Shown piece by piece: positions 5,583-32,519 of a stretch of DNA of 64,000 nucleotides (position 1 is its first letter; every line of letters starts with the position of its first letter). The stretch comes from an uncultured Bacilli bacterium (GTDB taxonomy: Bacteria; Bacillota_I; Bacilli_A; RF39; UBA660). The position numbers and the translations under genes were made by a program. The DNA lies in contig CALVON010000019.1 in the NCBI GenBank assembly GCA_944350315.1, positions 6,164 through 70,163 of the forward strand. The letters run 5' to 3'. The notes under the pieces were generated by a model. The model was not told the origin of the DNA. It was given only the letters and a program-made list of their open reading frames with translations, and did not search any database.

Positions 5583-5592
5583 TCAAAAATAT

Positions 5593-5728: not shown

Positions 5729-5740
5729 AAGGAGGTAAAT

Positions 5741-6040: not shown

Positions 6041-6049
6041 GGTGCTTTT

Positions 6050-6349: not shown

Positions 6350-6351
6350 AT

Positions 6352-6642
6352 ATGTTAAAGTTCTTAGAATTTAATATACAATTATTTGCTCATAAAAAAG
6401 GACAATCTTCAACAAGTAATGGTAGAGATTCTGCTGGTAGAAGATTAGGAGCAAAGGCTGCTGATGGTGAATATATTACTGCTGGTTCTATAATTTATCG
6501 TCAAAGAGGAACAAAAATTCATCCTGGAACAAATGTAAGAATTGGAACTGATGATACTCTATATTCAACAATTTCAGGATATGTAAAATATGAACACAAA
6601 GGAAAAGATAAGAAAAAAGTAAGTGTTTATACTACAAAATAA
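6352..6642 (+). CDS. rpmA: 50S ribosomal protein L27 with a cleavable N-terminal extension
   Basis: [12 protein letters not shown]|AHKKG...: a Prp cleavage-type propeptide followed by the conserved AHKK start of mature L27. Confidence 0.97.
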
Positions 6643-6714: not shown

Positions 6715-6791
6715 GGACCCTTAGCTCAGTTGGTTAGAGCATCCGGCTCATAACCGGGCGGTCGTAGGTTCGAGTCCTACAGGGTCCACCA
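6715..6791 (+). tRNA. tRNA with CAT anticodon (elongator Met or lysidine-modified Ile2), encoded CCA
   Basis: Cloverleaf drawn by hand: acceptor GGACCCT/AGGGTCC, anticodon stem TCCGG/CCGGG, loop CTCATAA, T-arm GTAGG-TTCGAGT-CCTAC, ACCA end. The G1:C72 pair argues against an initiator. The GGACC start resembles Bacillus tRNA-Ile2 as I recall it. Confidence 0.9.
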
Positions 6792-6798
6792 TTAATTT

Positions 6799-6882
6799 GC
6801 GGGTGTGGCGGAATTGGCAGACGCACTAGACTTAGGATCTAGCGGTTTATCCATGGGGGTTCAAGTCCCTTCACCCGCACCA
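6799..6882 (+). tRNA. tRNA-Leu (TAG anticodon), type II long variable arm, encoded CCA
   Basis: Acceptor GCGGGTG/CACCCGC, anticodon stem CTAGA/TCTAG with loop CTTAGGA, T-loop GGTTCAAGTCC. Confidence 0.92.
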
Positions 6883-12424: not shown

Positions 12425-13696
12425 ATGTTTATAGATGAAGTAATAATGGAAGTAACTGCTGGAAGAGGCGGAGACGGATGTATGGCTTTTTTAAGAGAAA
12501 AATTTGTTCCTATGGGAGGACCAAATGGTGGCAATGGCGGTAAAGGAGCTAATATCGTTTTTAAAGCTGATGAAGGATTAAAGACACTAATTGATTTGCG
12601 ATATTTAAAAAATGTTAAAGGAGATGCTGGACTAAACGGAGAAGGAAAAAATAAAAATGGTAAATCAGCTGAAGATAAAATTATCAAAGTTCCTGTAGGA
12701 ACTACCATAAAGGATTTTGAAAATAATTTCATAATAGCAGATTTAACAAAGCATAATGAAGAAGTAGTAGTAGCATATGGCGGAAAAGGTGGAAGAGGCA
12801 ATGTAACATTAGCTACTAGAAATAATCCTTGTCCCTCTTTTGCAGAAAGAGGTGAACCTGGCGAGACAAGAAAAATTAAAGTTGAACTAAGAATGCTTGC
12901 AGATGTTGGCTTAGTAGGTATGCCAAGTGTTGGCAAATCAACAATATTATCAATGATTACTAATGCTAACCCTAAAATTGCTTCATATCATTTTACAACT
13001 TTATCACCCAATTTAGGTGTAGTAACTACCAAAGAAAAGTTTAATTATGTTATCGCTGATTTACCAGGATTGATTGAAGGAGCCGGAGATGGAGCAGGAC
13101 TAGGACACAAATTTCTAAAACACATAGAAAGAACCAAAATAATTGCCCATATAATTGATATGTCAGCTTCAGAAGGAAGAGATCCATACGAAGATTATTT
13201 AATTATTAGAAAAGAGTTAGAAAAATTTAGCCCTAAATTATTAAATAAAAAAGAAGTAATTATCGCAAACAAGATGGATTTACCAAGTGCTAGAGAAAAT
13301 TTAATAAATTTTAAGAAAAAAATAAACCAAGAAGTATATGAAATATCTGCTATTAATAATCAAAATCTTGATACAATTATTAATGTTTTAGGAAAATTAG
13401 TAAAAGAAATTCCTAATGAGACATTATACGAAGAAGACGTCCAAGAAAGTCACGTACTATATAAATTTAAAGCAGAAAAACCATTTACTATTATTAAAGA
13501 AGATCATGTATTTATTATAAAAGGTGAAAAGGTAGAAAAAATATTTAAAATGATAAACTTTAACACTGAAGAAGCTATCTCAAGATTTGCTAAGAAATTA
13601 AGAAATATGGGTGTTGATGAAGAATTAGAAAAATTGGGAGTAGAAGAAGGCGACATAATTAGAATTCTTGACTATGAATTTGAATATACTAAATAA
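12425..13696 (+). CDS. obg: GTPase Obg/CgtA
   Basis: MFIDEV...AGRGGDGCMAFLREKF glycine-rich Obg fold, G-domain GMPSVGKST / DLPG / NKMD, C-terminal OCT domain. Confidence 0.97.
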   Translation: MFIDEVIMEVTAGRGGDGCMAFLREKFVPMGGPNGGNGGKGANIVFKADEGLKTLIDLRYLKNVKGDAGLNGEGKNKNGKSAEDKIIKVPVGTTIKDFENNFIIADLTKHNEEVVVAYGGKGGRGNVTLATRNNPCPSFAERGEPGETRKIKVELRMLADVGLVGMPSVGKSTILSMITNANPKIASYHFTTLSPNLGVVTTKEKFNYVIADLPGLIEGAGDGAGLGHKFLKHIERTKIIAHIIDMSASEGRDPYEDYLIIRKELEKFSPKLLNKKEVIIANKMDLPSARENLINFKKKINQEVYEISAINNQNLDTIINVLGKLVKEIPNETLYEEDVQESHVLYKFKAEKPFTIIKEDHVFIIKGEKVEKIFKMINFNTEEAISRFAKKLRNMGVDEELEKLGVEEGDIIRILDYEFEYTK

Positions 13697-13735
13697 ATAA
13701 AAAGTAAATAATATTTGTAAAAGAAATGTAAAATA

Positions 13736-13764
13736 TTGACATAAAAACAAAAATATTATATTAT
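13736..13764 (+). promoter_or_regulatory. Candidate promoter of the T4SS cluster
   Basis: TTGACA (13736-13741), a 17-nt spacer, then TATTAT (13759-13764). AGGAGG RBS 7 nt before the ATG at 13791. Confidence 0.4.
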
Positions 13765-13790
13765 AAACATAAGAAAAAAGGAGGAATATT

Positions 13791-14102
13791 ATGCTAATAT
13801 CGGCTGTAGCTTGTGAAAATTTAATGCCAATAATAAAACTTATTAAAAATGGAGTTATTCCTTTGATTCAAATAGGAATTCCTATAGTCTTAATTTTATT
13901 AGGAATGCTAGATTTAGGTAAAGCAGTAATGGCTTCAAAAGAAGATGAAATTAAATCAGCTCAAAAACTACTTATTAAAAGATGTATTTATGCTGTAGCA
14001 ATCTTTTTTGTAGTTTTAATAGTTCAATTAGTATTTAGTCTAGTAGATAATAGTGGAGATTTAGGTCAAAATAGTTGGTATGATTGTTGGAAGCAAGCGT
14101 AG
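13791..14102 (+). CDS. Small two-TM VirB2/TrbC-like (pilin-like) conjugal transfer protein
   Basis: 103 aa with two hydrophobic helices separated by the charged loop ASKEDEIKSAQK. First gene of the T4SS operon. A paralogue of the C-terminus of the next ORF. Pilin assignment rests on architecture and position only. Confidence 0.5.
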   Translation: MLISAVACENLMPIIKLIKNGVIPLIQIGIPIVLILLGMLDLGKAVMASKEDEIKSAQKLLIKRCIYAVAIFFVVLIVQLVFSLVDNSGDLGQNSWYDCWKQA

Positions 14103-14124
14103 TATAAAAAACATAGTTAATTTA

Positions 14125-14157
14125 ATAGAAAAAGTTCTATCTTTTTCTATTTTTTTA
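14125..14157 (+). terminator. Rho-independent terminator/attenuator directly after the small pilin-like gene
   Basis: ATAGAAAAAG (14125-14134) / CTTTTTCTAT (14141-14150), a 10-bp perfect stem with a 6-nt loop, then TTTTTT. Followed by the TGtTATAAT extended -10 at 14158-14166. Confidence 0.65.
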
Positions 14158-14204
14158 TGTTATAATGTATACGTGATATTTTACTTTATTAAGGAGCGAA
14201 CTTT

Positions 14205-15038
14205 ATGAAATATAAAAAATATATATTTTTCTTATTAATTATAATGATTTTTGGTTGCAATAAAATATATGCCATCACTACCTGCAAGGAAGAAAATGCT
14301 TGTTATTACATTTCAGCAGAAAAAGATACTTTTATGTGTTACAACCCCACACAAGACAAAATTACAATATCACTTACGCCAGAAAATAATGGGAAGACAG
14401 ATCCACTTATTAATAAAGATAAGAGTAAAACAGATGGAACTACAGGGATAGTAGTTAAGGCTGTTGGCAATGAATGCCCCAAATATCTTGTGTATAGGCA
14501 CAAAGATCGTTTTGGGATTGATTCTGACGGAATTTGGGGATTTAACGACAAAAGTTCCGCAGAAAAATTTGCTAGCGCATCAAATAGTGTAAAAAAATTT
14601 TCAACATATGTAGCAAGTACGGAAACAGAGAACGGAGAAACAATTACTAAAGATGTCTATGATAGGCAATTAGTAGAAGCCTTATTTGGCGATATTGATT
14701 CGACGGAAATTGGCGAAATTGATATAAACGGCAATATTGATTGTAGTGAATTATTTGGATCAAAAGATGATCCAAATAGTATAAGATACATGATAAATGA
14801 AATATTGCAATATCCAAAAATAATAGTACCAATACTAGTTATATGTTTTGGTATATTGGATTTTGCAAAGGCAGTTATTGCTAGCAAAGAAGATGAAATG
14901 AAAAAAGCTCAAGCCACTTTTATAAAAAGAATTGTTATTGGTGTTGCATTCTTCTTTATTCCAGTAATTGTTGATATAATAATGGGATTAGCAAATATAG
15001 TATGGGAAGGGTTAGGATATACTTCTTGCAATATTTAA
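14205..15038 (+). CDS. Secreted Cys-containing protein with a C-terminal pilin-like module
   Basis: Signal/lipobox-like N-terminus MKYKKYIFFLLIIMIFGC. About 180-aa extracytoplasmic domain. The C-terminal ~95 aa align with the 103-aa protein (GILDFAKAVIASKEDEMKKAQATFIKRIVIGVAFFF vs GMLDLGKAVMASKEDEIKSAQKLLIKRCIYAVAIFF). Confidence 0.55.
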   Translation: MKYKKYIFFLLIIMIFGCNKIYAITTCKEENACYYISAEKDTFMCYNPTQDKITISLTPENNGKTDPLINKDKSKTDGTTGIVVKAVGNECPKYLVYRHKDRFGIDSDGIWGFNDKSSAEKFASASNSVKKFSTYVASTETENGETITKDVYDRQLVEALFGDIDSTEIGEIDINGNIDCSELFGSKDDPNSIRYMINEILQYPKIIVPILVICFGILDFAKAVIASKEDEMKKAQATFIKRIVIGVAFFFIPVIVDIIMGLANIVWEGLGYTSCNI

Positions 15039-15054
15039 ATAGGGAGTGATATAA

Positions 15055-17415
15055 ATGTTTGATATTGAAGGAAACTTAAGAGTAGTTGCTGCAATGTTTT
15101 GTAAAGTAATATATGAGCTTATAGCACTTATATATGAACTTTTTATGGTAATTGCAAGAGTAAATATTTTATCTTCGGAAGAAATTGCTCCCATTTATCA
15201 AAGGGTAACAATGATATTAACAATAATAATGGTTTTTTATATAACTTTTGAATTTGTAAAATATGTTGTTCAACCTGATACAATAAATGATAAAGAAAAA
15301 GGTGCGGGGAATGTTGCTTTAAAAATGATAGTTGTAATACTATTGATTGCCTTTGTCCCTAAAATATTTACAATGGCTTATGATTTGCAAGGAAGAATAA
15401 TCGATAATCAAGTTATTTCTAAAATAATAATAGGGAATACAAGTATAGATAGTAATGCAGGAACATATGGTAGAGAATTTTCTAAAGAAGTACTGGCAGT
15501 TTTTTATAAAGTGAATGAAGAAGTATGTGATGGATGTGTAGAAGCTGATATAGTTAAATACAATTTGGATAGGTTAGCTTCAAATGGTGATTTAAAATAT
15601 CTAAAAACTAATTTAAAAGAGTATGAAAAAGTTAAAAACCCAGTAACAAATAAAAAAGAAGAGGTTCCCATCATTGATTTTGATGGAATATTAGCAATTA
15701 TAGTTGGTTGCTTAATAATCTACATATTAGTTTTATACTGCATTGATGTTGGAACAAGATATGCTCAATTGATATTTTTACAAATAATATCTCCTATCGC
15801 TATTATAGGATATTTAACTCCTAAGAAAGATAATATGTTTACAAAGTGGGTAAAGCAGTGTACGACAACTTATATAGATTTATTTATAAGAATAGCAATA
15901 ATATATTTTATTTTATTGCTATGCCGAGTGCTAGGAGATGCATATGGAAGTGGTAAGTTGTTTGAAGAATTAGGAGAAATATCAGTAGGGCTTAAAACAT
16001 TTACATATATTGCTTTAATATTAGGGTTATTGGTATTTGCAAATAAAGCTCCAAAAATGCTACAGGAGTTATTCCCAAATAGTGGAGCGGCAGGAATTGG
16101 ATATGGATTGAAAGGTTCAGAAAGAGTTGCACCAATGGCTGCTAGAACATTAGGTGCGGGACTTGGAGGACTAAATAGAATGGTCAGAAGTGGAATTTCA
16201 AGAGGAGTAAATACGCATAAAAGAAATGTTGAAAACGAAGATAAAAGGGCAACTAAAGGAGAGAGAAGAGAACATAGACAAGATAACCGAGCAGCTAATA
16301 GAGATTTAAAACAAAAAAGAAGAAATTTGAGAGCAGTAAGAAAAACCGGTGGTAATGTGCAAGCAGCAAGGGAGGAATTAAGGCGAGCAAGGGAAAATCA
16401 AGTAGAAGCACGAAGCAAAATAGCGGAAGATAAAAATACCCGAAAACGTAGTGTTGTTGGCGCAACACTAGCAGGTGCAGGACAAGGAGCATTGACAGGC
16501 GCGAGCGCTGGATTTGGAGCAGCAAAACTTGGGGATATAGGCAAGAAAATACAAGAGGGAAATAAAAAAGAATTAGAGGCAATAACAGCTAGAGAAAAAT
16601 ATTATGATGCTGGTGGTACTGGTGAATTGGCAAGAATGGGCACAAGAATTCAACAGTCAATGGGAATTCAAACCGATTCGCAAAGAACAGCAGAAGAAAT
16701 TAAAAGAATGGATTCAGAAATCAAAGCTGGAGAAACTTTAATTTCAAATCAAAGAGCTTCAAAAAAATCTGTTGATAGTGCTGAAAACAGAGGAAAAGAT
16801 AAAGCGAAAGCTGGAGAAATAAAAATATCAGCAGCTGGAGCAATAATAAAAACTGGAATTGGCACAGAAGTGGCAGCGATAAAACCTGGGGAAACTTTAA
16901 GCGACGTTGCGTTAAGATATAGTAAAGAAGCAGAAGTTGCAAAGTCTGCATTAGATGCAGCAGTTAAGTCAAATGCTTCACAATCGGTTATTGATGACTT
17001 AATTAAAAAATCGGCAGATGCAGATACTAGGGCAACAACAGTATTAAAGAATGTGTCTAGAGAAGCATTTACTAGATATTTACAAAACAAGGTTAATCCT
17101 AATGAAAAACCAGATGCAGTATTAATAAATCATATAGAAAATGTTAAAAATGATCTTAATGTTGCATTAAGAGATAAATCAACATTTGAAACATTAAAGA
17201 GGAGACTTGATTCAGCTAGATTTAATACATTAATAAAAGGAGAATATGAAAAATTTACATTTGATGATATAGATGAAATAAAGAACATATTACTTGATAT
17301 TTCAAATGATAAAGAAAGAGAAATAAGTAGCATTAAAGATTACAAAACAAGAATTGAAACAAGTTCAATGTATGATGCTCAAAAAGCTAATGCAGATGGA
17401 GGCGGCAAAAAATAA
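15055..17415 (+). CDS. VirB6/TrbL-like polytopic T4SS membrane protein with a ~400-aa charged C-terminal extension
   Basis: The N-terminal ~390 aa hold at least 6 TM helices with a large loop, as in ConG/TcpH/Orf15-type proteins. The C-terminal half is Lys/Arg/Glu/Ala-rich and predicted helical. Confidence 0.6.
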   Translation: MFDIEGNLRVVAAMFCKVIYELIALIYELFMVIARVNILSSEEIAPIYQRVTMILTIIMVFYITFEFVKYVVQPDTINDKEKGAGNVALKMIVVILLIAFVPKIFTMAYDLQGRIIDNQVISKIIIGNTSIDSNAGTYGREFSKEVLAVFYKVNEEVCDGCVEADIVKYNLDRLASNGDLKYLKTNLKEYEKVKNPVTNKKEEVPIIDFDGILAIIVGCLIIYILVLYCIDVGTRYAQLIFLQIISPIAIIGYLTPKKDNMFTKWVKQCTTTYIDLFIRIAIIYFILLLCRVLGDAYGSGKLFEELGEISVGLKTFTYIALILGLLVFANKAPKMLQELFPNSGAAGIGYGLKGSERVAPMAARTLGAGLGGLNRMVRSGISRGVNTHKRNVENEDKRATKGERREHRQDNRAANRDLKQKRRNLRAVRKTGGNVQAAREELRRARENQVEARSKIAEDKNTRKRSVVGATLAGAGQGALTGASAGFGAAKLGDIGKKIQEGNKKELEAITAREKYYDAGGTGELARMGTRIQQSMGIQTDSQRTAEEIKRMDSEIKAGETLISNQRASKKSVDSAENRGKDKAKAGEIKISAAGAIIKTGIGTEVAAIKPGETLSDVALRYSKEAEVAKSALDAAVKSNASQSVIDDLIKKSADADTRATTVLKNVSREAFTRYLQNKVNPNEKPDAVLINHIENVKNDLNVALRDKSTFETLKRRLDSARFNTLIKGEYEKFTFDDIDEIKNILLDISNDKEREISSIKDYKTRIETSSMYDAQKANADGGGKK

Positions 17416-17446
17416 TTGATACAAACAAAAAGGAGTGTGATACTTA

Positions 17447-17764
17447 ATGAATGGCAGTTTAGTTCCTGCAAATACTAAAAAATCATTACTAGTATTTGGA
17501 ATGTTTAGACCACTTCCGGATTTATTGATACTAGGAAGTGGTATAGGAATAACCGTTATACTATTATTAATATTTGGAGATGCAAGTACATGGATTTTAA
17601 TGTTATCTTGCATCCCAATGTTAATTGGATTAGTATTGGTATTACCAATTCCCAATTACCATAATACATTATGTGTAATTGAAAGTATTTTAGGATTTTA
17701 TAATGGAAGAAGAAAATTTATATGGAGAGGTTGGTGCATGAAAGATGAGTACAAAGACAAGTAA
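17447..17764 (+). CDS. PrgI/VirB3-like small T4SS membrane protein
   Basis: 105 aa, two TM helices, immediately upstream of VirB4 and overlapping it by 20 nt. Confidence 0.5.
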   Translation: MNGSLVPANTKKSLLVFGMFRPLPDLLILGSGIGITVILLLIFGDASTWILMLSCIPMLIGLVLVLPIPNYHNTLCVIESILGFYNGRRKFIWRGWCMKDEYKDK

Positions 17765-18302
17765 TTCAAAATATACTGAAGATTGGATACCCGTAAAAAA
17801 TATAACAAATGGGATGATTGAATTAGATAATAAGTACAAGGTAACAGGAGTAAAAGTTATACCTAGAAATATTTTCATTTTAGACAATAATACGCGAAAC
17901 AATTTAATAGCAATGCTAAAAACGTTTTATGACACTATAGATTTTGAATTTTGGTTAATATCTGCAGATAGGCCTGTTGACATATCAAATTATTTAGCTA
18001 CATTACAAATTCAATATAATCAGGTTGGAGATCCAAGAATAAAAAAATTAATAAGTCAGGACATAGAAAAGGCAAATGATTTTATGAGAGATAATGTAAC
18101 TGATACAGAATATTATATTTTATTTAAAGAAAAAAACGTGGATATTATTCAAAAAAGACTAAGAACTTTGATGCTTGGTTTATCAAATTGCGGAATAGAC
18201 TCTGTTCAAACTTCAAATGCAGATTTAAGAACAATGCTAGAAAGCTTTTTAAATGGTGGAATGAAAACTGAAAATAAGGCGGTGTTACCTAGTGAACGTT
18301 AA
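17745..18302 (+). CDS. VirB4-like ATPase, N-terminal domain encoded as a separate ORF
   Basis: EDWIPVKNITNGMIELDNKYKVTGVKVIPRNIFILD... matches the typical N-terminus of Gram-positive VirB4 homologues (TcpF/PrgJ/Orf16 type). 185 aa. The stop overlaps the next ORF by 11 nt. Confidence 0.7.
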   Translation: MSTKTSNSKYTEDWIPVKNITNGMIELDNKYKVTGVKVIPRNIFILDNNTRNNLIAMLKTFYDTIDFEFWLISADRPVDISNYLATLQIQYNQVGDPRIKKLISQDIEKANDFMRDNVTDTEYYILFKEKNVDIIQKRLRTLMLGLSNCGIDSVQTSNADLRTMLESFLNGGMKTENKAVLPSER

Positions 18303-20079
18303 ATCTCAAATTGCCCCTAAAGGACTCCAATTTAATTCAAACGATTTTGTAATTAGTGATAAATATGCGACCGTATTAACTGTAATTTCTTATCCAAGAA
18401 TAGTAAATGATGGATATTTGTCAGACTTAACCAATATTCCTGGTGTAAAAGTCTCAATAAAGCATATACCAGTTCCTTTTTCAATGCTAAGAAAAATGTT
18501 GGATAAAGAACTTGCTGACTTAAGAGCAAAATATCAACAAGAAAGAGATAATACCATTCTTGAAAGGATTCGCCAAGATATGGACTCTTTAGAAATGTTT
18601 ATCCAGCAATTCACAGCTTCACAGTCTAGAACTTTTGATTTTCAGCTTCATATCATGATTACTGCAGATACTAAAGAAGAATTAGAAAATAAAAAAGTAA
18701 ATTTAAAAACATACCTAGATTCCATGGAGTTAGTAGCAGTACCATTAAGATTTGAACAACAAAGAGTATTAAAATCAATGCTACCAATATTTGAAAAACA
18801 GCCAATTGAAGATAGAATTGGTACAATTATGCCATCACCAACAATAGCTACAATGTATCCGTTTATTTTTGATAGTTTGAAAGACGAAGGATTATCAACA
18901 TTACTTGGAGTAGAATTTTCAGGTGGAGTAGTATTATTTAATCAATTTTTGTATCAAATAAGAAAAGAAAATAATCGAAATAATGCTAATATGATTATTT
19001 TAGGAGCATCTGGAAGCGGAAAATCAACAGCAGCCAAATTGATGATACGTAGTCACATAAGAAATAATTATCAACTTGTATGTGTAGATCCTGAAGGAGA
19101 ACTTAGTGAAATGACAAAGAACTATGGTGGCGAAGTTATTGACTTAGGAAAAGGCGGGCAATATGGTATGATTAATCCACTTGAAATAGTAATGGATAGT
19201 GATGATAATGAGATATCTAGTCAAGGGTTAGGATATACTATACTTACATCTACACTTCAGACATTAAAAGCATTCATGAAATATTATTCGCCAAATATTG
19301 AGGAAGATGTATTGACACTTTTCGGGGAAATGGCTTTAGAGACGTACGCAAGATTTGGAATTGCCTATAATACTAATTTTTCCAATTATAAATCTAAGGA
19401 TTTTCCAATTATGCAAGATGTTTATGTAACTGTTACTAGTAAATTGACATCTATGACTGAAAAGACTCATGAAAGAGATGTTTTAGAAAGACTTGAATTA
19501 AAACTTAGACCATTAGTAAAAGAATTACAATATTATTTTAATGGCCATACAACAATTGATACTTCAAACGACTATTTAGTATTTAATATTAAAGAAATTA
19601 TGAATTCTGACGTAAATATTAGAAATGCTCTATTATTTAATGTTTTAAAATATGCTTGGAGTTTATGTTTAAATCCAAATAAAAATACTGTATTATCAGT
19701 AGATGAAGCCCATGTTTTACTAGGATCACAAAATGAATTAGGGGCCGAATTTTTGGCGCAAGTACAAAGAAGGGCAAGAAAATATAATACAGGTACCATT
19801 ATAATAACGCAACAACCGTCAGACTTTGTTGCTAACAATATGATTATGCATGGTAAAGCTATATTTGATAATGCATCATATTATTTAGTGATGGGATTAA
19901 GAAAACAAGCTGCTGATGACTTAGCATTACTAATAGACCTAAATGATAATGAAAAAGAAAATATAAAGAGATATAATCAAGGAGAAGCACTATTTGTTTG
20001 TGGAAATAGAAGAATGCAAATAGATGTAACCTTAACTGATAGTGAACTTGAATCATTTGGAAGTGGCGGAGGACTTTAA
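18292..20079 (+). CDS. VirB4-like conjugal transfer ATPase, C-terminal ATPase part
   Basis: Walker A GASGSGKST, Walker B LSVDEAHVL, and IIITQQPSDF typical of VirB4/TraE. GTG start with AAGGCGG 9 nt upstream. 185 + 595 aa is about the length of a canonical single-chain VirB4. Confidence 0.85.
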   Translation: MNVKSQIAPKGLQFNSNDFVISDKYATVLTVISYPRIVNDGYLSDLTNIPGVKVSIKHIPVPFSMLRKMLDKELADLRAKYQQERDNTILERIRQDMDSLEMFIQQFTASQSRTFDFQLHIMITADTKEELENKKVNLKTYLDSMELVAVPLRFEQQRVLKSMLPIFEKQPIEDRIGTIMPSPTIATMYPFIFDSLKDEGLSTLLGVEFSGGVVLFNQFLYQIRKENNRNNANMIILGASGSGKSTAAKLMIRSHIRNNYQLVCVDPEGELSEMTKNYGGEVIDLGKGGQYGMINPLEIVMDSDDNEISSQGLGYTILTSTLQTLKAFMKYYSPNIEEDVLTLFGEMALETYARFGIAYNTNFSNYKSKDFPIMQDVYVTVTSKLTSMTEKTHERDVLERLELKLRPLVKELQYYFNGHTTIDTSNDYLVFNIKEIMNSDVNIRNALLFNVLKYAWSLCLNPNKNTVLSVDEAHVLLGSQNELGAEFLAQVQRRARKYNTGTIIITQQPSDFVANNMIMHGKAIFDNASYYLVMGLRKQAADDLALLIDLNDNEKENIKRYNQGEALFVCGNRRMQIDVTLTDSELESFGSGGGL

Positions 20080-20102
20080 TAAAAATTAAATGAAATAAGG
20101 AT

Positions 20103-21776
20103 GTGGTAATATTGGGGAAAAAGATAGACTTGAATCGAAAACGTAATAATTTAACTCATAAAAATAAAAATACACGTCCAAAAAATAATAACTATGAAGG
20201 CAATAATAGCGATTTGGATGGAGAAAATATTACTGATGAAGAACAAAACAAAATAAATGCACCCGCCACTAAAACTTCAAATGGATTATTTGGCATAAAT
20301 GCAATAAACAATTCAGTATCAACAAAAAATAAAATTAAATTATTAACTAAAAATCCAGCTATTAAAGCAATAAAAACAAAACTGATATTAATTGGTATTG
20401 GGGTATCTTCGTTTGTTTTTATAATATTGTTCCTTATGGCAATGTTTGGTAATGAAACAGCACAAATTGCTACTGGTGGCTACTATGCTATGACGTGCCC
20501 CGAAGTAACGGTAATTTTTACTGACAAAGAAAATAACTATGAAATAACTGGTTCCAAAACATATCCATTTGAAGAATACATTGCTGGTGTTGTAGCTAAG
20601 GAAGTGGGTCCATTAGTATCCCTAGAAGTTTACAAGACTTTTGCCATTGCAGCAAGAAGTTACTTCTTTGCCAATGAAACAAATTGCATAATTGAATCTA
20701 GTGATCGTAAACAAGTATTTAGAGAACTAACAGAAACGGAAGCAGATAAATTAGTAATACAGGCAGTAGAAGAAACAAAAGGGAAAGTGTTGCTTTCTGA
20801 CAATCAATTATTTAGCACCCAATATGATGCTTTTGCATGCATTGCAAAAGATGATAATTACTATACCATTTCCCAAGCAAATCAAAAATTGCCAATTGAA
20901 TGGATTGATTCAAAAATAAATAAAGAGTCAAAACCAGAGTGGTTTATATGTAATGGCAAAGAAAATTTGAAAGAGCATCATGGAAATGGACTAAGCCAGT
21001 ATGGCTCTCTATACTTAGCTGTTGAACTAGATTATACATATGACCAAATTTTAAATTATTACCTTAGTGAATATGATATCACCATAAGTAGCGGTGGAAT
21101 AACCTCTATAGCTGGATTAGAAGTAAAAGATACAACTAATTCTGAAGCATTGAAAGAAAATTTAAGTCAATATTTATTAAATAATGGTAGTTCAATTGAA
21201 GAAATGAACGAATTTATATATAACAGTGTAGAAGAAGCAGGGAAAGGAACTAGAGCAGGAGTCGTTACTGCAGCTGTGTCATTAATTAATTATCTATATG
21301 ATAATTTCAATGTGCACATACCATATTATTGGAATGGAAAATATCAATACTATGGTGTTAATCCAAACTTTGGTGAAGAAACAGGTGGTTCGTGTTCACC
21401 AACTAGATGCTATTATTACTCCGGTTTTGATTGTAGTGGCTTTGTAAGTTGGGCCATAAAAAATGGTGGATATAACATAGGCGGATACTCCACATATGAC
21501 TTTCATAATAACTTTTCGCAAAATAGTTGTAGTATAACAGATGAAACATGTGTCGGGCAACCAGGAGATCTAATAAATACAAGAGATTCTCACGTTCAAT
21601 TGATTGTAGCAGTAGATGAGGAATCTCAAAAATACATTATAGCTGAATCCACAGGAAGTTACGGAGTCATTATGCGAGAATATGATATGCACAAAAGCAT
21701 GTTTCTTAAAGATACTAGAATTTTATTAATGGATGACTATTATAACAATCCTAACAATGTAGACCCAAATTATTAA
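20103..21776 (+). CDS. Membrane-anchored bifunctional cell-wall hydrolase: SpoIID-like lytic transglycosylase domain plus NlpC/P60 endopeptidase domain
   Basis: TM at KLILIGIGVSSFVFIILFLMAMF. SpoIID/LytB signature EEYIAGVVAKEVGP..LEVYKTFAIAARSYF. NlpC/P60 Cys in GFDCSGFVSW and His in DSHVQLIV. The exact start codon is uncertain. Confidence 0.75.
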   Translation: MVILGKKIDLNRKRNNLTHKNKNTRPKNNNYEGNNSDLDGENITDEEQNKINAPATKTSNGLFGINAINNSVSTKNKIKLLTKNPAIKAIKTKLILIGIGVSSFVFIILFLMAMFGNETAQIATGGYYAMTCPEVTVIFTDKENNYEITGSKTYPFEEYIAGVVAKEVGPLVSLEVYKTFAIAARSYFFANETNCIIESSDRKQVFRELTETEADKLVIQAVEETKGKVLLSDNQLFSTQYDAFACIAKDDNYYTISQANQKLPIEWIDSKINKESKPEWFICNGKENLKEHHGNGLSQYGSLYLAVELDYTYDQILNYYLSEYDITISSGGITSIAGLEVKDTTNSEALKENLSQYLLNNGSSIEEMNEFIYNSVEEAGKGTRAGVVTAAVSLINYLYDNFNVHIPYYWNGKYQYYGVNPNFGEETGGSCSPTRCYYYSGFDCSGFVSWAIKNGGYNIGGYSTYDFHNNFSQNSCSITDETCVGQPGDLINTRDSHVQLIVAVDEESQKYIIAESTGSYGVIMREYDMHKSMFLKDTRILLMDDYYNNPNNVDPNY

Positions 21777-21789
21777 AAAGGGGGATATT

Positions 21790-22512
21790 ATGAAAAAAAG
21801 AATAATAATGTTGATAGCAGTTATATTTCTTACAACAGGTTGTACATGTGAATATAATTTAACAATTGATAATAATACATATAAAGAAGAAATTGTCTTG
21901 ACATCAAGTGATAGTGAAGAATTAACCAATTTTAACAATGAATGGCAAATACCTATAGATAAGGAAATTTATCAAAATATTAGTGGTGATCCGAGTACGG
22001 AAACTAATATAGAAGAAGATATATATAATTATAATTTATCTGGGAATAAATTGAAATTTGACTATGAATTTACTAAAAACGGTATATCTAATTCAACGGC
22101 AATTTCAGCATGTTATAATACAGCAACAATTCAAAGTTATGATGATTCAATAATAATATCGACTAGTGATAAAGTAAAATGTTTTGATACTTATCCACCA
22201 CTTACAGAAATAAAAATTAACATTTCTACAGATCAAAAAGTAACCACACATAATGCTGATAGCGTCAATGAAAATACATATACTTGGTATATAACAAAAG
22301 AACAAGCCGAAAATAGACCTATCAACATGATAATTAAAAAAAATGAAGCAAGTTCTTCGTCAAGTGTAGCAGAATCAACAACAAATAATCAAAATAATAA
22401 ACAAAAAGATTATACCTTATATATATTTTGCTTAATATTACTTATTGTTTTACTATTAGGATATTTTATAGTTACAAGAATAAAGAAAGACAAAGATGAT
22501 ATGGATGATTAA
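21790..22512 (+). CDS. T4SS-associated lipoprotein with an additional C-terminal TM anchor
   Basis: Lipobox FLTTGC at residues 13-18. Ser-rich linker. C-terminal helix LYIFCLILLIVLLLGYFIV followed by KKDKDD. Confidence 0.6.
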   Translation: MKKRIIMLIAVIFLTTGCTCEYNLTIDNNTYKEEIVLTSSDSEELTNFNNEWQIPIDKEIYQNISGDPSTETNIEEDIYNYNLSGNKLKFDYEFTKNGISNSTAISACYNTATIQSYDDSIIISTSDKVKCFDTYPPLTEIKINISTDQKVTTHNADSVNENTYTWYITKEQAENRPINMIIKKNEASSSSSVAESTTNNQNNKQKDYTLYIFCLILLIVLLLGYFIVTRIKKDKDDMDD

Positions 22513-22581
22513 TTTCATCCTTTTTATTGATAGTTTTTAATCAATGTGTTATAATTTTACTTATGAAAAGAGGTGTAATAA

Positions 22582-24966
22582 ATGAAATTTAAAATTGAAT
22601 CAAAGGATTTAATAATTTTTATTTGTTTTTGTGTATTATTATTATACCTTTGTGCTATTACTGTCTTAAATTTATCGACATTATCAACAGACGGTGTATT
22701 TTATGGTCTATTACCATTTAAAGCATTCACTGGAAAATATATTGGAGCAACTTTAGTTTTGTTTATATTAGCACTAATTGGTGTTTTTACTGCGGTTAAT
22801 TCCTATATCTTTGACCGTGAATCTGGATTTGGATTTAGCATTGGTGGCAAGAAGAACAATGGCTATTCCAGATGGGCAAAAAAGACTGAAATAAAAAAAC
22901 AACTAAAAAGAGTTGATCCAAAAGCATATTCAGCTGATGCTGCTGGGCTAGTAGTAATTAATGAAGGCCACACAATATGGGTAGACGATGGAGAGGCACA
23001 TAACATTGTTATCGGAGCTACCGGTAGTGGTAAAACCCAAGCAGTTGTCTTTCCAATGGTACAAAGCTTAGCTAAAAAAGGCGAATCGATGATTATCACC
23101 GATCCTAAAGGGGAAATATATGAAAACACCGCCAATATGCTAAGAGAAAGAGGATATAATATAATTATTCTAAACTTTAGAAGCCCACAACAAGGAAATG
23201 GTTGGAATCCTATGGCCCTTCCATATGAATTATATAAAGAAGGAAATGCCGATAAGGCTATTGAATTATTAGATGACTTAGCATTAAACATTTTGTATGA
23301 AGAAAAAGCAGGAAATGCCGATCCATTTTGGGAAAAATCAGCTGCCGACTATTTTACTGGTCTTGCTTTAGGATTATTTGAAGATGCTAAAGAAAATCAA
23401 ATTAATTTAAATAGTATGAATCTTATGTCGAGTCTAGGAGAGGAAAGATTTGGGGGACCAAACAACAACTACATTAAGGAATACTTTAACTCAAAAGATC
23501 CATCACGTCCAGCATATGTTAATGCTTCAGGAGTAGTCTACACAGCAGAAGATACAAAGCAAGGTGTATTAGCAACCTTTAAACAAAAAGTGAAATTGTT
23601 CTCATCACGCGATAATTTATCAGAAATGTTATGCCATAGCGATTTTGAAATGAAAGAAATAGGAAGACAAAAAACAGCTGTCTTCATGATAGTGCAAGAT
23701 GAGAAAAAAACGCTTCACCCATTAGCAACAATCTTTATTAAACAATGTTATGAAACTCTAATTGATGTAGCACAAGAATCTGGTGGGAAATTACCATATA
23801 GAACAAATTTTATTCTTGATGAATTTGCCAATATGCCACCATTAAAAGATGTTACGACAATGGTAACAGCTGCTCGTTCAAGACTTATTAGATTTACCTT
23901 TATCATTCAAAATTACGCTCAACTAACTCAAGTGTATGGAAAGGAAAATGCAGAAACAATAAAAGGAAACTGTAATATTACATATCTAATAAGCAGTGAA
24001 TTAGGGGCACTTGAAGAATTGTCAAAATTATGTGGTGAAGTAAAATCAAAAGAAAAAGATAAAACTGCATCTACGCCACTAGTAACAGTTAGTGATCTAC
24101 AAAGATTACAACAATATGAAACAATCAGTTTACGTCTAAGAACAATGCCATTTAAAACAAAATTGATTCCTAATTACAAAATGGATTGGGGAAAAAAGTA
24201 TGAAAAGGCTACATATCCAGAAAGAGAAAGACAAAAGGTTGAATTATTTGATATTCGTGAATTTGTAAAAGAAATGAAAAAGAAAAAAATGGCTGAAATG
24301 ATGGGATCAACACCTAATGGTGGTGAAATGTCAAAAATGCCAAACTCCAATCCATTTTTAGGAAATCCCTATGGGATAAATCAAATGTCAAATCCTTCAT
24401 TTGGTACTAATCCATTTACTTTAAATAATCCATTTGCTAATAACTTTAATAATAATTCTCAATCATCCGGAAGCTTTAATGTTGATGATTTAGTAAAAAG
24501 AATTGATGCCAAAATAGCAGAATTAGAAGCTGAAGAGCAAGAAGAAAAAGAAAAAGCTAATAAAAGCAATGGCAAACTGTCACCAATAGAAATTAAAGAA
24601 AATGTTAATAGCATATCTGATTTACCTGAAGAAAAAAGTCAAAATAATAATGTATTGTCAGATGAAGTAAAAGATGAAAAAATTAACCTATCTGATAATG
24701 CTTCAATTAAAGAAAATAACGAAATTAATATAAATGAGCTATTACAAGAAAAGAATGAACTACCTGATAATACTCCAATTAAAGAAAATAATACAATTAA
24801 TATAAATGAATTATCGCAAGAAAAAAATAAACTACCTAATAATAACCCAATTAATGAAAAAAATACAATTAATATAAATGAATTATCACAAGAAAAAAAT
24901 AATAGTATTCCTAATACTCAGGAAAATGATGATAATTTCTTTGATGACTTTTTTGCTGATGAGTAA
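22582..24966 (+). CDS. VirD4/TraG-family type IV coupling protein with a long low-complexity C-terminal tail
   Basis: Two N-terminal TM helices, Walker A GATGSGKTQ, Walker B FILDEFANM, IQNYAQL motif. About 225-aa Asn/Pro-rich tail containing tandem repeats. Confidence 0.88.
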   Translation: MKFKIESKDLIIFICFCVLLLYLCAITVLNLSTLSTDGVFYGLLPFKAFTGKYIGATLVLFILALIGVFTAVNSYIFDRESGFGFSIGGKKNNGYSRWAKKTEIKKQLKRVDPKAYSADAAGLVVINEGHTIWVDDGEAHNIVIGATGSGKTQAVVFPMVQSLAKKGESMIITDPKGEIYENTANMLRERGYNIIILNFRSPQQGNGWNPMALPYELYKEGNADKAIELLDDLALNILYEEKAGNADPFWEKSAADYFTGLALGLFEDAKENQINLNSMNLMSSLGEERFGGPNNNYIKEYFNSKDPSRPAYVNASGVVYTAEDTKQGVLATFKQKVKLFSSRDNLSEMLCHSDFEMKEIGRQKTAVFMIVQDEKKTLHPLATIFIKQCYETLIDVAQESGGKLPYRTNFILDEFANMPPLKDVTTMVTAARSRLIRFTFIIQNYAQLTQVYGKENAETIKGNCNITYLISSELGALEELSKLCGEVKSKEKDKTASTPLVTVSDLQRLQQYETISLRLRTMPFKTKLIPNYKMDWGKKYEKATYPERERQKVELFDIREFVKEMKKKKMAEMMGSTPNGGEMSKMPNSNPFLGNPYGINQMSNPSFGTNPFTLNNPFANNFNNNSQSSGSFNVDDLVKRIDAKIAELEAEEQEEKEKANKSNGKLSPIEIKENVNSISDLPEEKSQNNNVLSDEVKDEKINLSDNASIKENNEININELLQEKNELPDNTPIKENNTININELSQEKNKLPNNNPINEKNTININELSQEKNNSIPNTQENDDNFFDDFFADE
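24688..24903 (+). repeat. Three in-frame 72-bp (24-aa) tandem repeats inside the VirD4 tail
   Basis: Units 24688-24759, 24760-24831 and 24832-24903 encode LSDNASIKENNEININELLQEKNE / LPDNTPIKENNTININELSQEKNK / LPNNNPINEKNTININELSQEKNN. Confidence 0.9.
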
Positions 24967-24977
24967 TATTAAAAAAC

Positions 24978-25018
24978 ATAATGCAAGTATTATAAAAATA
25001 TATGCATTGTGTTTTTTT
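24978..25018 (+). terminator. Weak terminator-like hairpin after virD4
   Basis: AATGCA (24980-24985) / TGCATT (25003-25008) with a long loop, followed by GTGTTTTTTT. Confidence 0.35.
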
Positions 25019-25074
25019 AGTCAATCTAACTTATCAATAATAGTATATCTAAATATAATAAAATAGGTGATATA

Positions 25075-25362
25075 ATGAATGAAATTAGTATCAAAGATTT
25101 AATTAAATTAGATAATCCTAATATTATTGATATAAGAGACAACTACACTTACAATTTAGGACATATAAAGAATGCTAAAAATATTCCATATTATAGTTTA
25201 TTATCCAACTATTCAATATATTTAAATAAAAATGACACCTATTACTTATACTGTAACTACGGGAAACAAAGTCTAGAAATAAGCAACCGTCTAAATTTAT
25301 TTGGATATCATACATTTTATATTAAAGAAGGATATTTAGACTTTAAAAATAAAAATATTTAA
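25075..25362 (+). CDS. Single-domain rhodanese-like sulfurtransferase
   Basis: IIDIRDNYTYNLGHIKNAKNIP and the active-site loop YCNYGKQS. Confidence 0.8.
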   Translation: MNEISIKDLIKLDNPNIIDIRDNYTYNLGHIKNAKNIPYYSLLSNYSIYLNKNDTYYLYCNYGKQSLEISNRLNLFGYHTFYIKEGYLDFKNKNI

Positions 25363-25388
25363 TGTATAATATTAATAGGTGATAATAA

Positions 25389-26447
25389 ATGGAGTATATA
25401 GTAATTGGCTTACTTATAATAATTATAATTTTATTAATAATTTTACTATCAAGAGGAAATTTAGGATTAATAGAAAGATTGAGTAAAGTTGAAACAACTA
25501 CAATAAAAGAATTGTCATCATTCAGAACAGAACTATCTAAAAGTCTAACTGAAGATTTTGAACATTTAGAAGACAAAGTTGAAAAAAGATTAATATTTAT
25601 TAATGACAAAGTAAATGAAAGATTAGATGAAAACTTTAGTAAAACCAATAAAACATTTACCAATGTTTTAGAAAGACTATCAAAGATAGATGAAGCTCAG
25701 AAAAAGATTGATAGTTTATCTGGTGATATTGTTTCATTACAAAGCATTTTAACTGATAAAAAAAGTAGAGGAATATTTGGCGAAGTAAATTTAAATCACA
25801 TTTTAAAAAATGTTTTTGGAGAAAGCAATGAAAAAATTTATAAACTTCAATATACATTGCCAAACACAACCATAGCAGATGCAGTAATATTCACTCCTGA
25901 ACCCTTAGGAACAATTGCAATAGATTCTAAATTTCCATTAGAAAATTACCGTTTAATGGTAGACAAAAATAAAAGCGCATCTGAAAGGCAAATGTATGAA
26001 AAACAATTTAAAAGTGATGTAAAAAAACACATCGATGCCATAAGTAATAAATATATCATTCCAGGAATAACATCTAATCAAGCCATCATGTTCTTACCAG
26101 CTGAAGCTATTTTTGCTGAAATTAATGCATATCATAATGATTTAGTAGAATATGCCTATAAAAAAAATGTCTGGATAACGTCTCCTACAACATTAATTTC
26201 TTCACTAACAACCATTCAGGTATTATTAAAAAATATGGAAAGAGACAAATATGCCAAAGTAGTTCATGACGAATTGATTAAGTTAGGAATTGAATTTCAA
26301 AGATACAAAGAAAGATGGGATAAATTATCTAGAAGCATCGAAACTGTCGGAAAAGATGTTGAAAATTTAAATATTACTTCCGAAAAGATAACTAAAAAAT
26401 TTGAATCAATAAATGATGTTAAATTAGATGAAAATTATTTAAAATAA
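25389..26447 (+). CDS. rmuC: DNA recombination protein RmuC
   Basis: N-terminal TM, coiled coil, and a nuclease-like core with IAIDSKFPLENY. Confidence 0.85.
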   Translation: MEYIVIGLLIIIIILLIILLSRGNLGLIERLSKVETTTIKELSSFRTELSKSLTEDFEHLEDKVEKRLIFINDKVNERLDENFSKTNKTFTNVLERLSKIDEAQKKIDSLSGDIVSLQSILTDKKSRGIFGEVNLNHILKNVFGESNEKIYKLQYTLPNTTIADAVIFTPEPLGTIAIDSKFPLENYRLMVDKNKSASERQMYEKQFKSDVKKHIDAISNKYIIPGITSNQAIMFLPAEAIFAEINAYHNDLVEYAYKKNVWITSPTTLISSLTTIQVLLKNMERDKYAKVVHDELIKLGIEFQRYKERWDKLSRSIETVGKDVENLNITSEKITKKFESINDVKLDENYLK

Positions 26448-30899: not shown

Positions 30900-32519
30900 A
30901 TGGAAAAGCTACCGGCTAAGCAAATATATTTATTAAGCATAATTATTATAGGAATTATTGCTTTATCTGTTTATTCAACTTATGCTATTTTTACATTTGA
31001 AGGACAAACATCAAATATTGTTAGTCTATATACTCCAAATTCATTAAACATTAGCGAAGAAATATCAGAGTATCGTCAGACAAAAATTGCTAAAAATTCA
31101 TATATAACAACAGATATAGATATATACAATACATATGATTATGAAATATGTTATAGTGTATGGTATCAAATATTAGATGGTGAATTCGATAAGTCATTAA
31201 TAAAAATATATCAAGTAAATAATTCATCATCAGGAAGTATTGAAGCATTAAAAAGCCAGCGAATAAAATTGCTTATCATTAATGATAATGATGTTGAAGT
31301 CAAACTAAAAGTAGGGATTGCTACTGCTAAAAACGAAAATACTTGCACACTAAATATAAATGAAAATAAAAATTTAGTAAAAGATAATATTGAAAACTAT
31401 CAAGAACTAACAACATTGATAAAAAATGATACTGTTGCTATAACTGAAGAACAAGGATATCTAGTATACAAAAGTAAAAACGATGATGATATAATATTAG
31501 AAGACGAAAAGATATATATTGCAAATGAATATACATATGATAATGAAATATTTACTTTAGTAAATCCTATCAGTATTGACATTATAAATATTAATAATTA
31601 TCAAAGTAATGATGATAAAAACTATTATACATGTCTAGATGAATCAACATGTAAATTTCTATATAAAATAAATCAAACAGAGAAACAAACTGTAAAAAAT
31701 GAAACAACTGTATTTTCTGAAGATATCTATAAAATAATTGATTATGACACTTATAAAGGATATTCTAAAACAACTTCAGGAGTAAAGAAGATAGTAAAAA
31801 AAGATATAGAAAATTACCTTTATTATGGTGATAATCCTCATAATTTTATTTACTATAATTGTCTTGATAATTCAGATAAAAATAGTTGTGAATTATGGAG
31901 AATTATTGGTACATATTATGACACAGAAACGGGAGAATATTATACTAAAATAATAAGAAATGAATCAATTGGAACGTATCAATATAACAATATAGATGAT
32001 AATTTATGGAATAATTCCCCTTTACTAAAATATTTAAATACAGAATATGAATTAAATAATATAGAGTATCTTTATGAACCAAAATACTTTCAAGAGTCAA
32101 TAAGTGATTTTGAAAATAAAATAGAAGATATAAAAATTTTAAATAATGAAATAAGCTCAAAAGTAAATATAATGAGCTTAACAGATTATTTATTATCTTC
32201 TTCTTGCAATAAAGAAACAATTAATCAATATACTAAAGAATGCTTAACAAATAATTGGTTAAATAATAATGACAACCCATATTGGACATATACTTTAAAA
32301 ACGAATACTAAAATAGTAGAAGAAAGTCAACAAGATGAACAAGAAGATGATAATTTAGAAGACATAGTTTTAAACAATCAAATTATTTCTGTATCAGATA
32401 CTATAAACATAAATTATGCTAAAGAACAATTAGCAGTAAGACCAGTAGTTTACCTTAAATCTAGAATGTTAGTAGTAGAAGGCACTGGAACCCTAGAAGA
32501 TCCTTATATTATAAAATAA
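30900..32519 (+). CDS. Large secreted protein with a degenerate SipW-type signal and a TasA-like N-domain plus a ~350-aa C-terminal extension
   Basis: ...ALSVYSTYAIFTFEGQTSNIVSLYTPNSLNIS. The C-terminal part contains LWNNSPLLKYLNTEYE...MSLTDYLLSS (a DUF6273-like pattern) and ends with GTGTLEDPYIIK. Confidence 0.5.
   Translation: MEKLPAKQIYLLSIIIIGIIALSVYSTYAIFTFEGQTSNIVSLYTPNSLNISEEISEYRQTKIAKNSYITTDIDIYNTYDYEICYSVWYQILDGEFDKSLIKIYQVNNSSSGSIEALKSQRIKLLIINDNDVEVKLKVGIATAKNENTCTLNINENKNLVKDNIENYQELTTLIKNDTVAITEEQGYLVYKSKNDDDIILEDEKIYIANEYTYDNEIFTLVNPISIDIININNYQSNDDKNYYTCLDESTCKFLYKINQTEKQTVKNETTVFSEDIYKIIDYDTYKGYSKTTSGVKKIVKKDIENYLYYGDNPHNFIYYNCLDNSDKNSCELWRIIGTYYDTETGEYYTKIIRNESIGTYQYNNIDDNLWNNSPLLKYLNTEYELNNIEYLYEPKYFQESISDFENKIEDIKILNNEISSKVNIMSLTDYLLSSSCNKETINQYTKECLTNNWLNNNDNPYWTYTLKTNTKIVEESQQDEQEDDNLEDIVLNNQIISVSDTININYAKEQLAVRPVVYLKSRMLVVEGTGTLEDPYIIK

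Follow-up and report, generated by a model that had tools for sequence, protein, structure and literature searches.

What does a bacterium do with a conjugation channel that lies among its housekeeping genes and has no relaxase beside it? A December 2025 review describes nearly all known Gram-positive type IV secretion system (T4SS) functions as limited to DNA transfer, and regards the existence of dedicated non-conjugative Gram-positive systems as a long-standing question, with the Patescibacteria as the sole monoderms that have a chromosomal pilin-bearing T4SS (PMC12857230). The locus considered here is in a 64 kb stretch of contig CALVON010000019.1 (positions 6,164 to 70,163; assembly GCA_944350315.1) from an uncultured Bacilli bacterium, the whole of which we refer to as the window; nine co-oriented genes at 13791-24966 (o1 to o9), between obg upstream and rhodanese-rmuC downstream, encode T4SS components including a VirD4 coupling protein. 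Hidden Markov model (HMM) matches, together with nearest homologues that reside on Firmicutes plasmids and integrative and conjugative elements (ICEs), assign the cluster to the Gram-positive mating-pair-formation (MPF) class MPF_FATA. We propose that it is probably a domesticated conjugation machine, derived from a T4SS of the kind found in plasmids pXO2, pAW63 and pBMB68, that has lost its mobility modules and is vertically inherited. It is carried by a large group of gut Bacilli that are uncultured and have small genomes of low GC content, and on this view the cluster cannot move itself.

The initial annotation of this sequence listed no relaxase, recombinase, or replication or partition gene in the window, and Pfam, NCBIfam and tblastn searches bear this out. 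We considered 52 window open reading frames (ORFs) of at least 110 aa, of which 45 were scanned against Pfam, the seven left out being antisense inside annotated genes, and the eight Pfam-negative ones were also run against NCBIfam. None of the scanned ORFs resembles a relaxase, recombinase, replication or partition protein, the results being housekeeping families or no match, and no transposase was found in the window. Queries taken from mobile relatives, namely MobP3 of pBMB68, MobL and ArdC/Toprim of an element designated L091, and Toprim_2 and the serine recombinase of a Thomasclavelia ramosa ICE, gave zero tblastn matches in the window or in 85 related loci, and in 80 species-level relatives HMM and BLAST searches of the 10 kb on either side of the cluster turned up neither a relaxase or recombinase nor att repeats. 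The window also lacks convincing direct repeats at the cluster edges, as first described, with only 70-80% matches typical of AT-rich DNA, and the tRNAs are 7 kb from the cluster.

The same genes are widespread and are found at the same place. A scan of one genome per GTDB species detected this VirB4 clade in uncultured gut Bacilli of at least 588 species. The best 80 of these have VirB4 proteins 68-93% identical to that of the window and are all uncultured gut Bacilli or 'Tenericutes' metagenome-assembled genomes, with names such as 'Bacilli', 'Tenericutes', 'Acholeplasma sp. CAG:878', 'Firmicutes CAG:321' and 'Candidatus Onthousia'; their hosts are humans, mice, rabbits, goats and chickens, and a complete chromosome of 1.52 Mb is among them. 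At 88-100% identity the VirB4 ATPase is represented by more than 120 database clusters, in every case from gut metagenomes and with a length of 594-596 residues. The order of o1 to o9 is conserved and all of the genes are intact in the approximately 80 species sampled, with rhodanese and rmuC, both ordinary core genes as initially stated, behind virD4 in many of the loci and obg upstream in the closest group. The initial annotation had suggested aligning the obg-rmuC interval of relatives; comparison of the loci places the cluster in the same position in all close relatives. In a metagenome scan baited with RmuC, all 13 of the 13 loci with RmuC identity of at least 77% and enough upstream sequence carry the T4SS, and no empty site was seen among close strains. 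Deeper in the clade the neighboring genes differ, and mobile-element genes were not seen there.

The ATPases of the cluster also evolve as core genes do. The dN/dS values are 0.04-0.08 for VirB4, 0.10-0.12 for VirD4 and 0.07-0.08 for obg, and although rough, dS being saturated (~1-2), they indicate that the ATPases are as constrained as obg and rmuC. The pairwise identities of VirB4 and RmuC among 18 genomes are correlated with a Mantel r of 0.82, which 0 of 2000 permutations reach. Because the cluster occupies the same site across related species, has ATPases with core-like dN/dS and a VirB4 that covaries with RmuC, and has no relaxase, recombinase or att repeat near it in the sequence examined, we conclude that it is fixed in the chromosome and is not an ordinary self-transmissible ICE, in agreement with what the initial annotation had inferred as a possibility. 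A hint of foreign origin had been seen in a GC-rich stretch at 16-17 kb; the stretch is real (G+C 0.387 versus a background of ~0.25) but the hint is not borne out, as the increase is confined to codon positions 1 and 2 of an Ala/Lys/Arg/Gly-rich domain of o3 whose third-position G+C (GC3) of 0.155 equals background. The GC3 of the T4SS genes is 0.18, compared with 0.148 (sd 0.03) in other genes. We therefore reject GC content as a sign of recent acquisition and attribute the increase to amino-acid composition.

The genes and signals of the cluster are listed in Table 1. Of the ten co-oriented ORFs initially counted from 95 nt after obg, the shared orientation and close spacing hold, nine genes are supported, and the gap to obg is 94 nt; a 62-aa ORF at 24878-25066 overlaps the end of virD4 and has no homologue support. 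The gap past the first gene is 102 nt and that ahead of virD4 is 69 nt, matching the ~100 and ~70 nt reported, and the others are at most 31 nt or are overlaps. The promoter noted after obg is the best consensus match in the region, and the hairpin past o1 is real, if weak, and would act as a weak intrinsic terminator or attenuator. A second predicted promoter (P2; TTGATA-17-TATAAT with TG, 22527-22555) precedes virD4.

Table 1. Genes and sequence features of the T4SS cluster, in window coordinates
Feature	Coordinates	Strand	Basis
Promoter P1, TTGACA-17-TATTAT (predicted)	13736..13764	+	11/12 consensus, top match in 13400-25500; inside 94-nt post-obg gap
o1, 103 aa, two transmembrane (TM) helices: small VirB2-like (T4SS_pilin/PrgF-type) pilin	13791..14102	+	BLAST family with o2; TM scan
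Weak A/U hairpin after o1	14124..14158	+	11-bp A/U stem + U7; -13.3 kcal/mol, z -3.3
o2, 277 aa: signal/lipobox-like N-terminus, globular domain, C-terminal pilin hairpin	14205..15038	+	Sequence and AlphaFold2 (AF2) model
o3, 786 aa: VirB6/TrbL-like, 7 TM (aa 1-330) and soluble tail	15055..17415	+	PF19597 TrbL_4 39.3 bits, cut-off 27
o4, 105 aa, two to three TM segments: VirB3/PrgI-like by position and topology	17447..17764	+	No HMM match itself
o5, 185 aa: separate VirB4 N-terminal domain protein, TrsD/TraC-like	17745..18302	+	VirB4_plasma positions 97-283, 1.6e-14
o6, 595 aa: VirB4 ATPase, Walker A GASGSGKST, Walker B VDEAH	18292..20079	+	P-loop_TraG, AAA_10 above Pfam cut-offs
o7, 557 aa: membrane-anchored cell-wall hydrolase, VirB1 analogue	20103..21776	+	SpoIID 52.6 bits, NlpC/P60 24.7 bits, both above cut-off
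o8, 240 aa: lipoprotein, LTTGC lipobox, LppM-like beta domain, C-terminal TM anchor	21790..22512	+	AF2, Foldseek
Weak hairpin and U-run, then P2 (function inferred)	22503..22555	+	Hairpin -10.5 kcal/mol, z -2.4; precedes virD4
o9, 794 aa: VirD4 coupling protein, 2 TM, Walker A GATGSGKT, Walker B	22582..24966	+	PF02534 T4SS-DNA_transf 1.2e-54, TraG-D_C
Three tandem 72-nt (24-aa) repeats in VirD4 tail	24662..24900	+	Repeat family D1, 76-78% identity
VirD4 extreme C-terminal motif DDNFFDDFFADE	24928..24963	+	Conserved behind hypervariable linker
Strong intrinsic terminator past virD4	24971..25018	+	-18.4 kcal/mol, z -6.1, then U7

Pilins in such a cluster are expected, because almost all Gram-positive conjugative plasmids are reported to have VirB2-like pilins (bioRxiv 10.64898/2025.12.18.695078), and the initial annotation had recognized two. 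This stands at the level of the family, the window copies themselves being sub-threshold for PF18895 T4SS_pilin. Protein o1 and the C-terminal part of o2 each form a two-helix membrane hairpin; the two are paralogues and belong to a BLAST family of 140 proteins over 71 related loci (1-4 genes per locus), 17 members of which match PF18895 (best 5e-9). No Pfam match was obtained with o1 itself, and the C-terminal 97 aa of o2 match PF18895 below threshold (E 0.0034, 17.8 bits; cut-off 26.6), with the domain present in many full-length o2 homologues at 36-61% identity. The small protein o1 is the candidate major pilin subunit. Its family alignment shows conserved Cys8, Cys99, P31, D41, K44 and R64; the two near-invariant cysteines are close to the two ends of the pilin (o1 codons 13812-13814 and 14085-14087), and both are predicted to be extramembrane. 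A Cys8-Cys99 disulfide may tie the pilin termini together, a possibility reminiscent of cyclic T-pilins. The AF2 model of o2 has an overall predicted local distance difference test (pLDDT) score of 80 and a confident alpha/beta domain at residues 30-160 (14292-14684; pLDDT ~90), for which Foldseek gave no PDB structural match (best E 0.68). A profile of 69 pilin-family sequences gave only non-specific membrane-helix matches in the PDB, and PDB sequence searches with o2, o3 and o8 gave no match.

The membrane platform begins with o3, initially called VirB6-like and identified as such by its TrbL_4 domain. It also matches the NCBIfam models MMCAP2_0566 and Mbov_0396 below cut-off, and its C-terminal region of 430 aa is soluble, rich in Ala, Lys, Arg, Gly and Glu, and without an enzymatic domain. 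Gene o4 lies directly upstream of the VirB4 genes with a 20-nt overlap with o5; one orthologue matches PF12666 PrgI at 2e-4 and the plasmid counterpart is annotated as PrgI. The VirB4 ATPase with its Walker motifs is as initially described, except that it is encoded by two genes, o5 and o6, rather than one. The same 185 + 595 aa split is present in every relative and in the plasmid and ICE homologues, which rules out a frameshifted pseudogene, and a TrsD/VirB4 split is known from pGO1 and the Patescibacteria (PMC12102498). Protein o5, found in 84 loci, is 28% identical to a 227-aa protein upstream of VirB4 in pBMB68, and proteins identical to it have a precomputed PF26593 TraC-like match. The length of o6 is 593-608 aa across 86 loci, of which 85 retain Walker A; its NCBIfam matches are to VirB4_plasma (340 bits, cut-off 590, positions 294-893) and CD1110 (189 bits, cut-off 325).

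Outside the membrane, o7 has the two hydrolase domains of the initial annotation and one N-terminal TM segment. This hydrolase module is exchanged between lineages, being SpoIID+NlpC/P60, M23 plus NlpC/P60, or SpoIID/other. In metagenome contig L001, whose VirB4 is identical to that of the window, the hydrolase is split into ORFs of 291 aa and 269 aa (4736-6417; L002 4736-6400), which reflects a frameshift in that strain or else a mistake in the assembly. The lipoprotein o8 was also correctly recognized: its AF2 model (pLDDT 81) has as best Foldseek match Mycobacterium tuberculosis LppM (2nc8, E 4e-6, TM-score 0.60), and there is a weak PF21946 match. Its sequence is hypervariable, with homologues at 27-97% identity. 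We considered o8 as a VirB8-like protein and rejected this, as Foldseek returned the LppM fold and listed zero VirB8-family matches. With o8 the only extracytoplasmic protein left to assign, no VirB8-like component (PrgL/TraM/TcpC, NTF2-like) was found in the cluster, contrary to the initial statement that every normally needed channel component is encoded.

The coupling protein o9 is identified as initially proposed, its match to the NCBIfam family conju_CD1115 scoring 294.6 bits against a required 250; exact look-up of its sequence returned no record. Its C-terminal extension of ~270 aa is low-complexity and hypervariable, and includes the tandem repeats, with a 24-residue unit of ..NININELSQEKN.LP.N.PI.E. 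(Table 1). At the very end, however, behind the hypervariable linker, is a conserved acidic-aromatic motif, DDxFFDDFFxD/E, which ends VirD4 throughout the clade and is in the same place in L003-L085. The core [FY][FY][DN]DFF is within the final 14 residues in 59 of 60 full-length VirD4 orthologues, the remaining one being truncated where its contig stops. Neither the other ORFs of these loci nor the type IV coupling proteins (T4CPs) of pBMB68 and element L091 contain the motif. Its conservation at the tip of a disordered tether suggests that an adaptor, a substrate or another partner may dock there.

The exposed components evolve far faster than the motors. Relative to a genome with a 94% identical VirB4, identities are 57-62% for o2, 36-42% for o3, ~53% for o7 and ~62% for o8, and in database searches the homologues of o2 and o8 range without a break between 99% and 27% identity. 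Diversifying selection and relaxed constraint on these parts are inseparable here because dS is saturated. Compared with L003 and L006, in which VirB4 is 88-94% identical, o2, o3, o7 and o8 are 27-63% identical.

Most of the 80 relatives have a further module directly upstream of the cluster and co-oriented with it (L066 1-5032, with equivalents in most of L011-L085). It is Tad-like and consists of CpaB/RcpC, a T2SSE/CpaF-like ATPase, two TadB/C-like membrane proteins, small TadE-like proteins and a 330-aa protein, and it corresponds to the 'VirB11' of pAW63 (PMC1196294). The module also accompanies pBMB68 and a Mycoplasmatota plasmid (L086 24486-30059, L087 30927-33560). It was searched for in the 64 kb window and is absent.

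These components suggest how the machine might work. P1 would drive expression of the small VirB2-like pilin o1, followed beyond a leaky terminator by o2, a second pilin with a globular head. The membrane platform of o3 and o4 (VirB6 and VirB3) and the two-part VirB4 ATPase (o5 and o6) would assemble channel and pilus, and the hydrolase o7 would open the peptidoglycan. VirD4 (o9), transcribed from its own predicted promoter, would recruit a cytoplasmic substrate and feed it to the channel, with the invariant DDxFFDDFF at the end of its long disordered tail presumably docking an adaptor or the substrate itself.

What that substrate is can be approached from the gene content. When a T4SS has a coupling protein but no relaxase, it is usually read as a protein translocator. 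Because the cluster shows this combination, and because the Patescibacteria, for which such transfer has been proposed, provide a precedent, we favor, with less than even confidence, a non-conjugative and contact-dependent role in which protein or another macromolecule would be transferred to or from neighboring cells. DNA transfer using a relaxase that is encoded elsewhere or is unrecognized, whether for chromosomal exchange or for mobilization of other elements, is a possible but less likely role, and adhesion alone or DNA uptake make up what is left. More tentatively still, the cluster could be a Bacillota counterpart of the Patescibacteria T4SS, a pilus-bearing secretion machine for contact-dependent exchange of nutrients, effectors or DNA on which these bacteria would depend.

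Several other explanations compete with domestication, of which the most serious, though we consider it somewhat unlikely, is that this is a working conjugation system with its relaxase and origin of transfer (oriT) elsewhere on the chromosome or on small mobilizable elements, acting in Hfr-like transfer or in the manner of mycoplasma chromosomal transfer, or serving as a shared helper. Every homologue whose function is known comes from a DNA conjugation system, and VirD4 belongs to the conjugative CD1115 family above the NCBIfam cut-off; moreover relaxase and MPF genes are separable (PMC12102498), and the mycoplasma ICE T4SS moves chromosomal DNA (PMC12857230). In the mobile relatives, however, the relaxase adjoins virD4, and that position is empty in every locus examined, while the VirD4 tail is clade-specific and absent from the conjugative relatives. 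It is very improbable that the cluster takes up DNA as ComB and the archaeal Ced system do, perhaps together with the upstream Tad-like pilus of the relatives. Such a role would fit a weak NCBIfam match of o6 to CedD (1e-10, far below cut-off) and the position of the Tad-like module in most relatives and on related plasmids, but ComB and Ced systems have no VirD4, which here is tightly linked and strongly conserved, and because the Tad-like module also accompanies conjugative plasmids, and is absent from the window, it does not point to uptake. Least probable of all is that we are looking at an ordinary ICE or its decaying remnant, with an integrase/relaxase half just outside the examined region or recently lost. 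The distant relatives are indeed ICEs or plasmids, and one metagenome contig has the split hydrolase gene, but this is difficult to reconcile with a shared position in species with saturated synonymous sites, intact genes in ~80 species, ATPases constrained as core genes are, an ameliorated composition, the lack of att repeats, and 64 kb of housekeeping surroundings.

Domestication as a vertically inherited, non-mobile machine thus remains the explanation we prefer, and the following points weigh against it. A relaxase or oriT could lie elsewhere, the search having covered the 64 kb window and 10 kb flanks in relatives; the saturation of dS makes the evidence of constraint approximate; and, as no VirB8-like part was found, the channel is only presumed to be complete. 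The analysis brought up no candidate effector. The cluster is also not universal at this site: in 31 loci with RmuC at ~72-75% identity, the 10 kb preceding rmuC contain no T4SS, and it has therefore been relocated or is absent in at least one sizeable sub-lineage. In a large group of related gut contigs with RmuC in this identity range (L109-L171, for example L139 1-10000), valS, TM2/DUF2752, YetF and polysaccharide deacetylase genes are upstream of rmuC.

The window as a whole has ~25% G+C and uses the standard bacterial code. Pfam identifies housekeeping genes throughout, in accord with the initial description, including rpsD, hpf, a two-component pair, HtrA, obg, rhodanese, rmuC, polA, fpg, scpAB, polC, aspS, tilS, phosphoketolase, EzrA, SecDF, RelA, dtd, FtsW and a D-Ala-D-Ala carboxypeptidase. 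An L21 leader and tRNA-Met/tRNA-Leu (5648-5724 and 6715-6882) respectively precede and follow three ~99-aa ORFs, which are probably rplU-ysxB-rpmA. A 539-aa ORF at 30900-32519 has no family match, and its C-terminus resembles DUF6273 proteins (cluster c20), which adjoin virD4 in several relatives. The sole match of a 118-aa ORF at 60224-60580 is to the C-terminal helix-turn-helix of AraC-family regulators, of which it may be a truncated member.

We found no description of this system in the searched literature on RFN20, CAG-826, Onthousia, RF39 or Mycoplasmatota with T4SSs. The kind of arrangement for which the Patescibacteria were the sole example is now seen in Bacillota proper, in hundreds of species-level genomes of a kind common in human and animal gut metagenomes. 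New here are the fast-evolving exposed parts, the clade-wide DDxFFDDFF tail of VirD4, and the Tad-like module upstream in most relatives. Mobile relatives with relaxases and fixed relatives without them form a clean comparison set, opening to genomics and metatranscriptomics the questions of how a conjugation machine becomes domesticated and what a coupling protein does without a relaxase, and the conserved VirD4 tail is a concrete handle for finding the substrate. If these organisms depend on cell contact, the system also offers a hook for cultivating them, for example in co-culture. Should the cluster be a Bacillota counterpart of the Patescibacteria machine, the fast-evolving exposed parts would set partner specificity, and the VirD4 tail would bring in substrates or adaptors of a new class. 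The cluster would then be without precedent as a dedicated non-conjugative T4SS that is fixed in a whole Gram-positive lineage, and would offer a clue to the origin of the Patescibacteria system.

Among known systems, the nearest mobile homologues have VirB4 proteins 28-32% identical to that of the window and share its local gene order, but a relaxase or recombinase gene lies no more than a few kb away. The closest annotated plasmid homologues are of the pXO2/pAW63/pBMB68 type (PMC1196294; VirB4 28%, VirD4 31%), and pBMB68 shares the order pilin-like, TrbL, PrgI, TrsD-like, short VirB4 and NlpC/P60. These plasmids pair the T4SS with a SAF/CpaB-AAA-CpaF ('VirB11') Tad-like module, as do most of the chromosomal relatives, but unlike the window cluster they are mobile, with MobP3 beside virD4 and replication, primase and toxin-antitoxin genes, whereas the window virD4 is at the far end with its own predicted promoter, and the window contains no Tad-like module. 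Erysipelotrichales ICEs (Thomasclavelia ramosa) and element L091 similarly have a split VirB4 of ~606 aa, 31-32% identity and the same local order, but differ in having a serine recombinase, Toprim or ArdC proteins, a single-stranded DNA-binding protein and a MobL relaxase within a few kb. The mycoplasma ICE T4SS (CDS5/CDS17) supplies the best NCBIfam models, for VirB4 (Mbov_0397) and VirB6 (the MMCAP2_0566 and Mbov_0396 families), with scores below the family cut-offs (340 versus 590; 45 versus 90) and so not at equivalog level. It too is a minimal set without a VirB8-like part, and no canonical relaxase is known there; mycoplasma ICEs differ in their fused VirB4, DDE transposase, mobility and lack of a wall hydrolase. 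The 89K island of Streptococcus suis, compared by description, has a Gram-positive VirB1/3/4/6/D4 set that is implicated in the export of protein rather than DNA and is the only reported effector-secreting Gram-positive T4SS (PMC12857230), but it is a mobile pathogenicity island of some strains, as opposed to a lineage-wide fixed operon.

The closest analogue is that of the Patescibacteria (candidate phyla radiation, CPR), such as Southlakia epibionticum, which have a relaxase-less, chromosomal and pilin-bearing MPF_FATA-related T4SS that is essential for epibiotic growth (PMC12102498; PMC12857230). On the basis of gene content and the published description, the window cluster resembles it in being chromosomal, vertically inherited and without a nearby relaxase, in having a separate TrsD-like N-domain protein with VirB4, PrgI/VirB3 and VirB6, in its sequence-divergent arrays of VirB2-like pilins (here 1-4 per locus), in the peptidase or lysozyme genes right behind virB4, and in its small-genome hosts. 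The host here, in contrast, is a member of the Bacillota with a normal set of wall-synthesis genes, and whereas the CPR T4CP is usually distant and not essential, the VirD4 of the window is adjacent, strongly conserved, and distinguished by a unique C-terminal motif.

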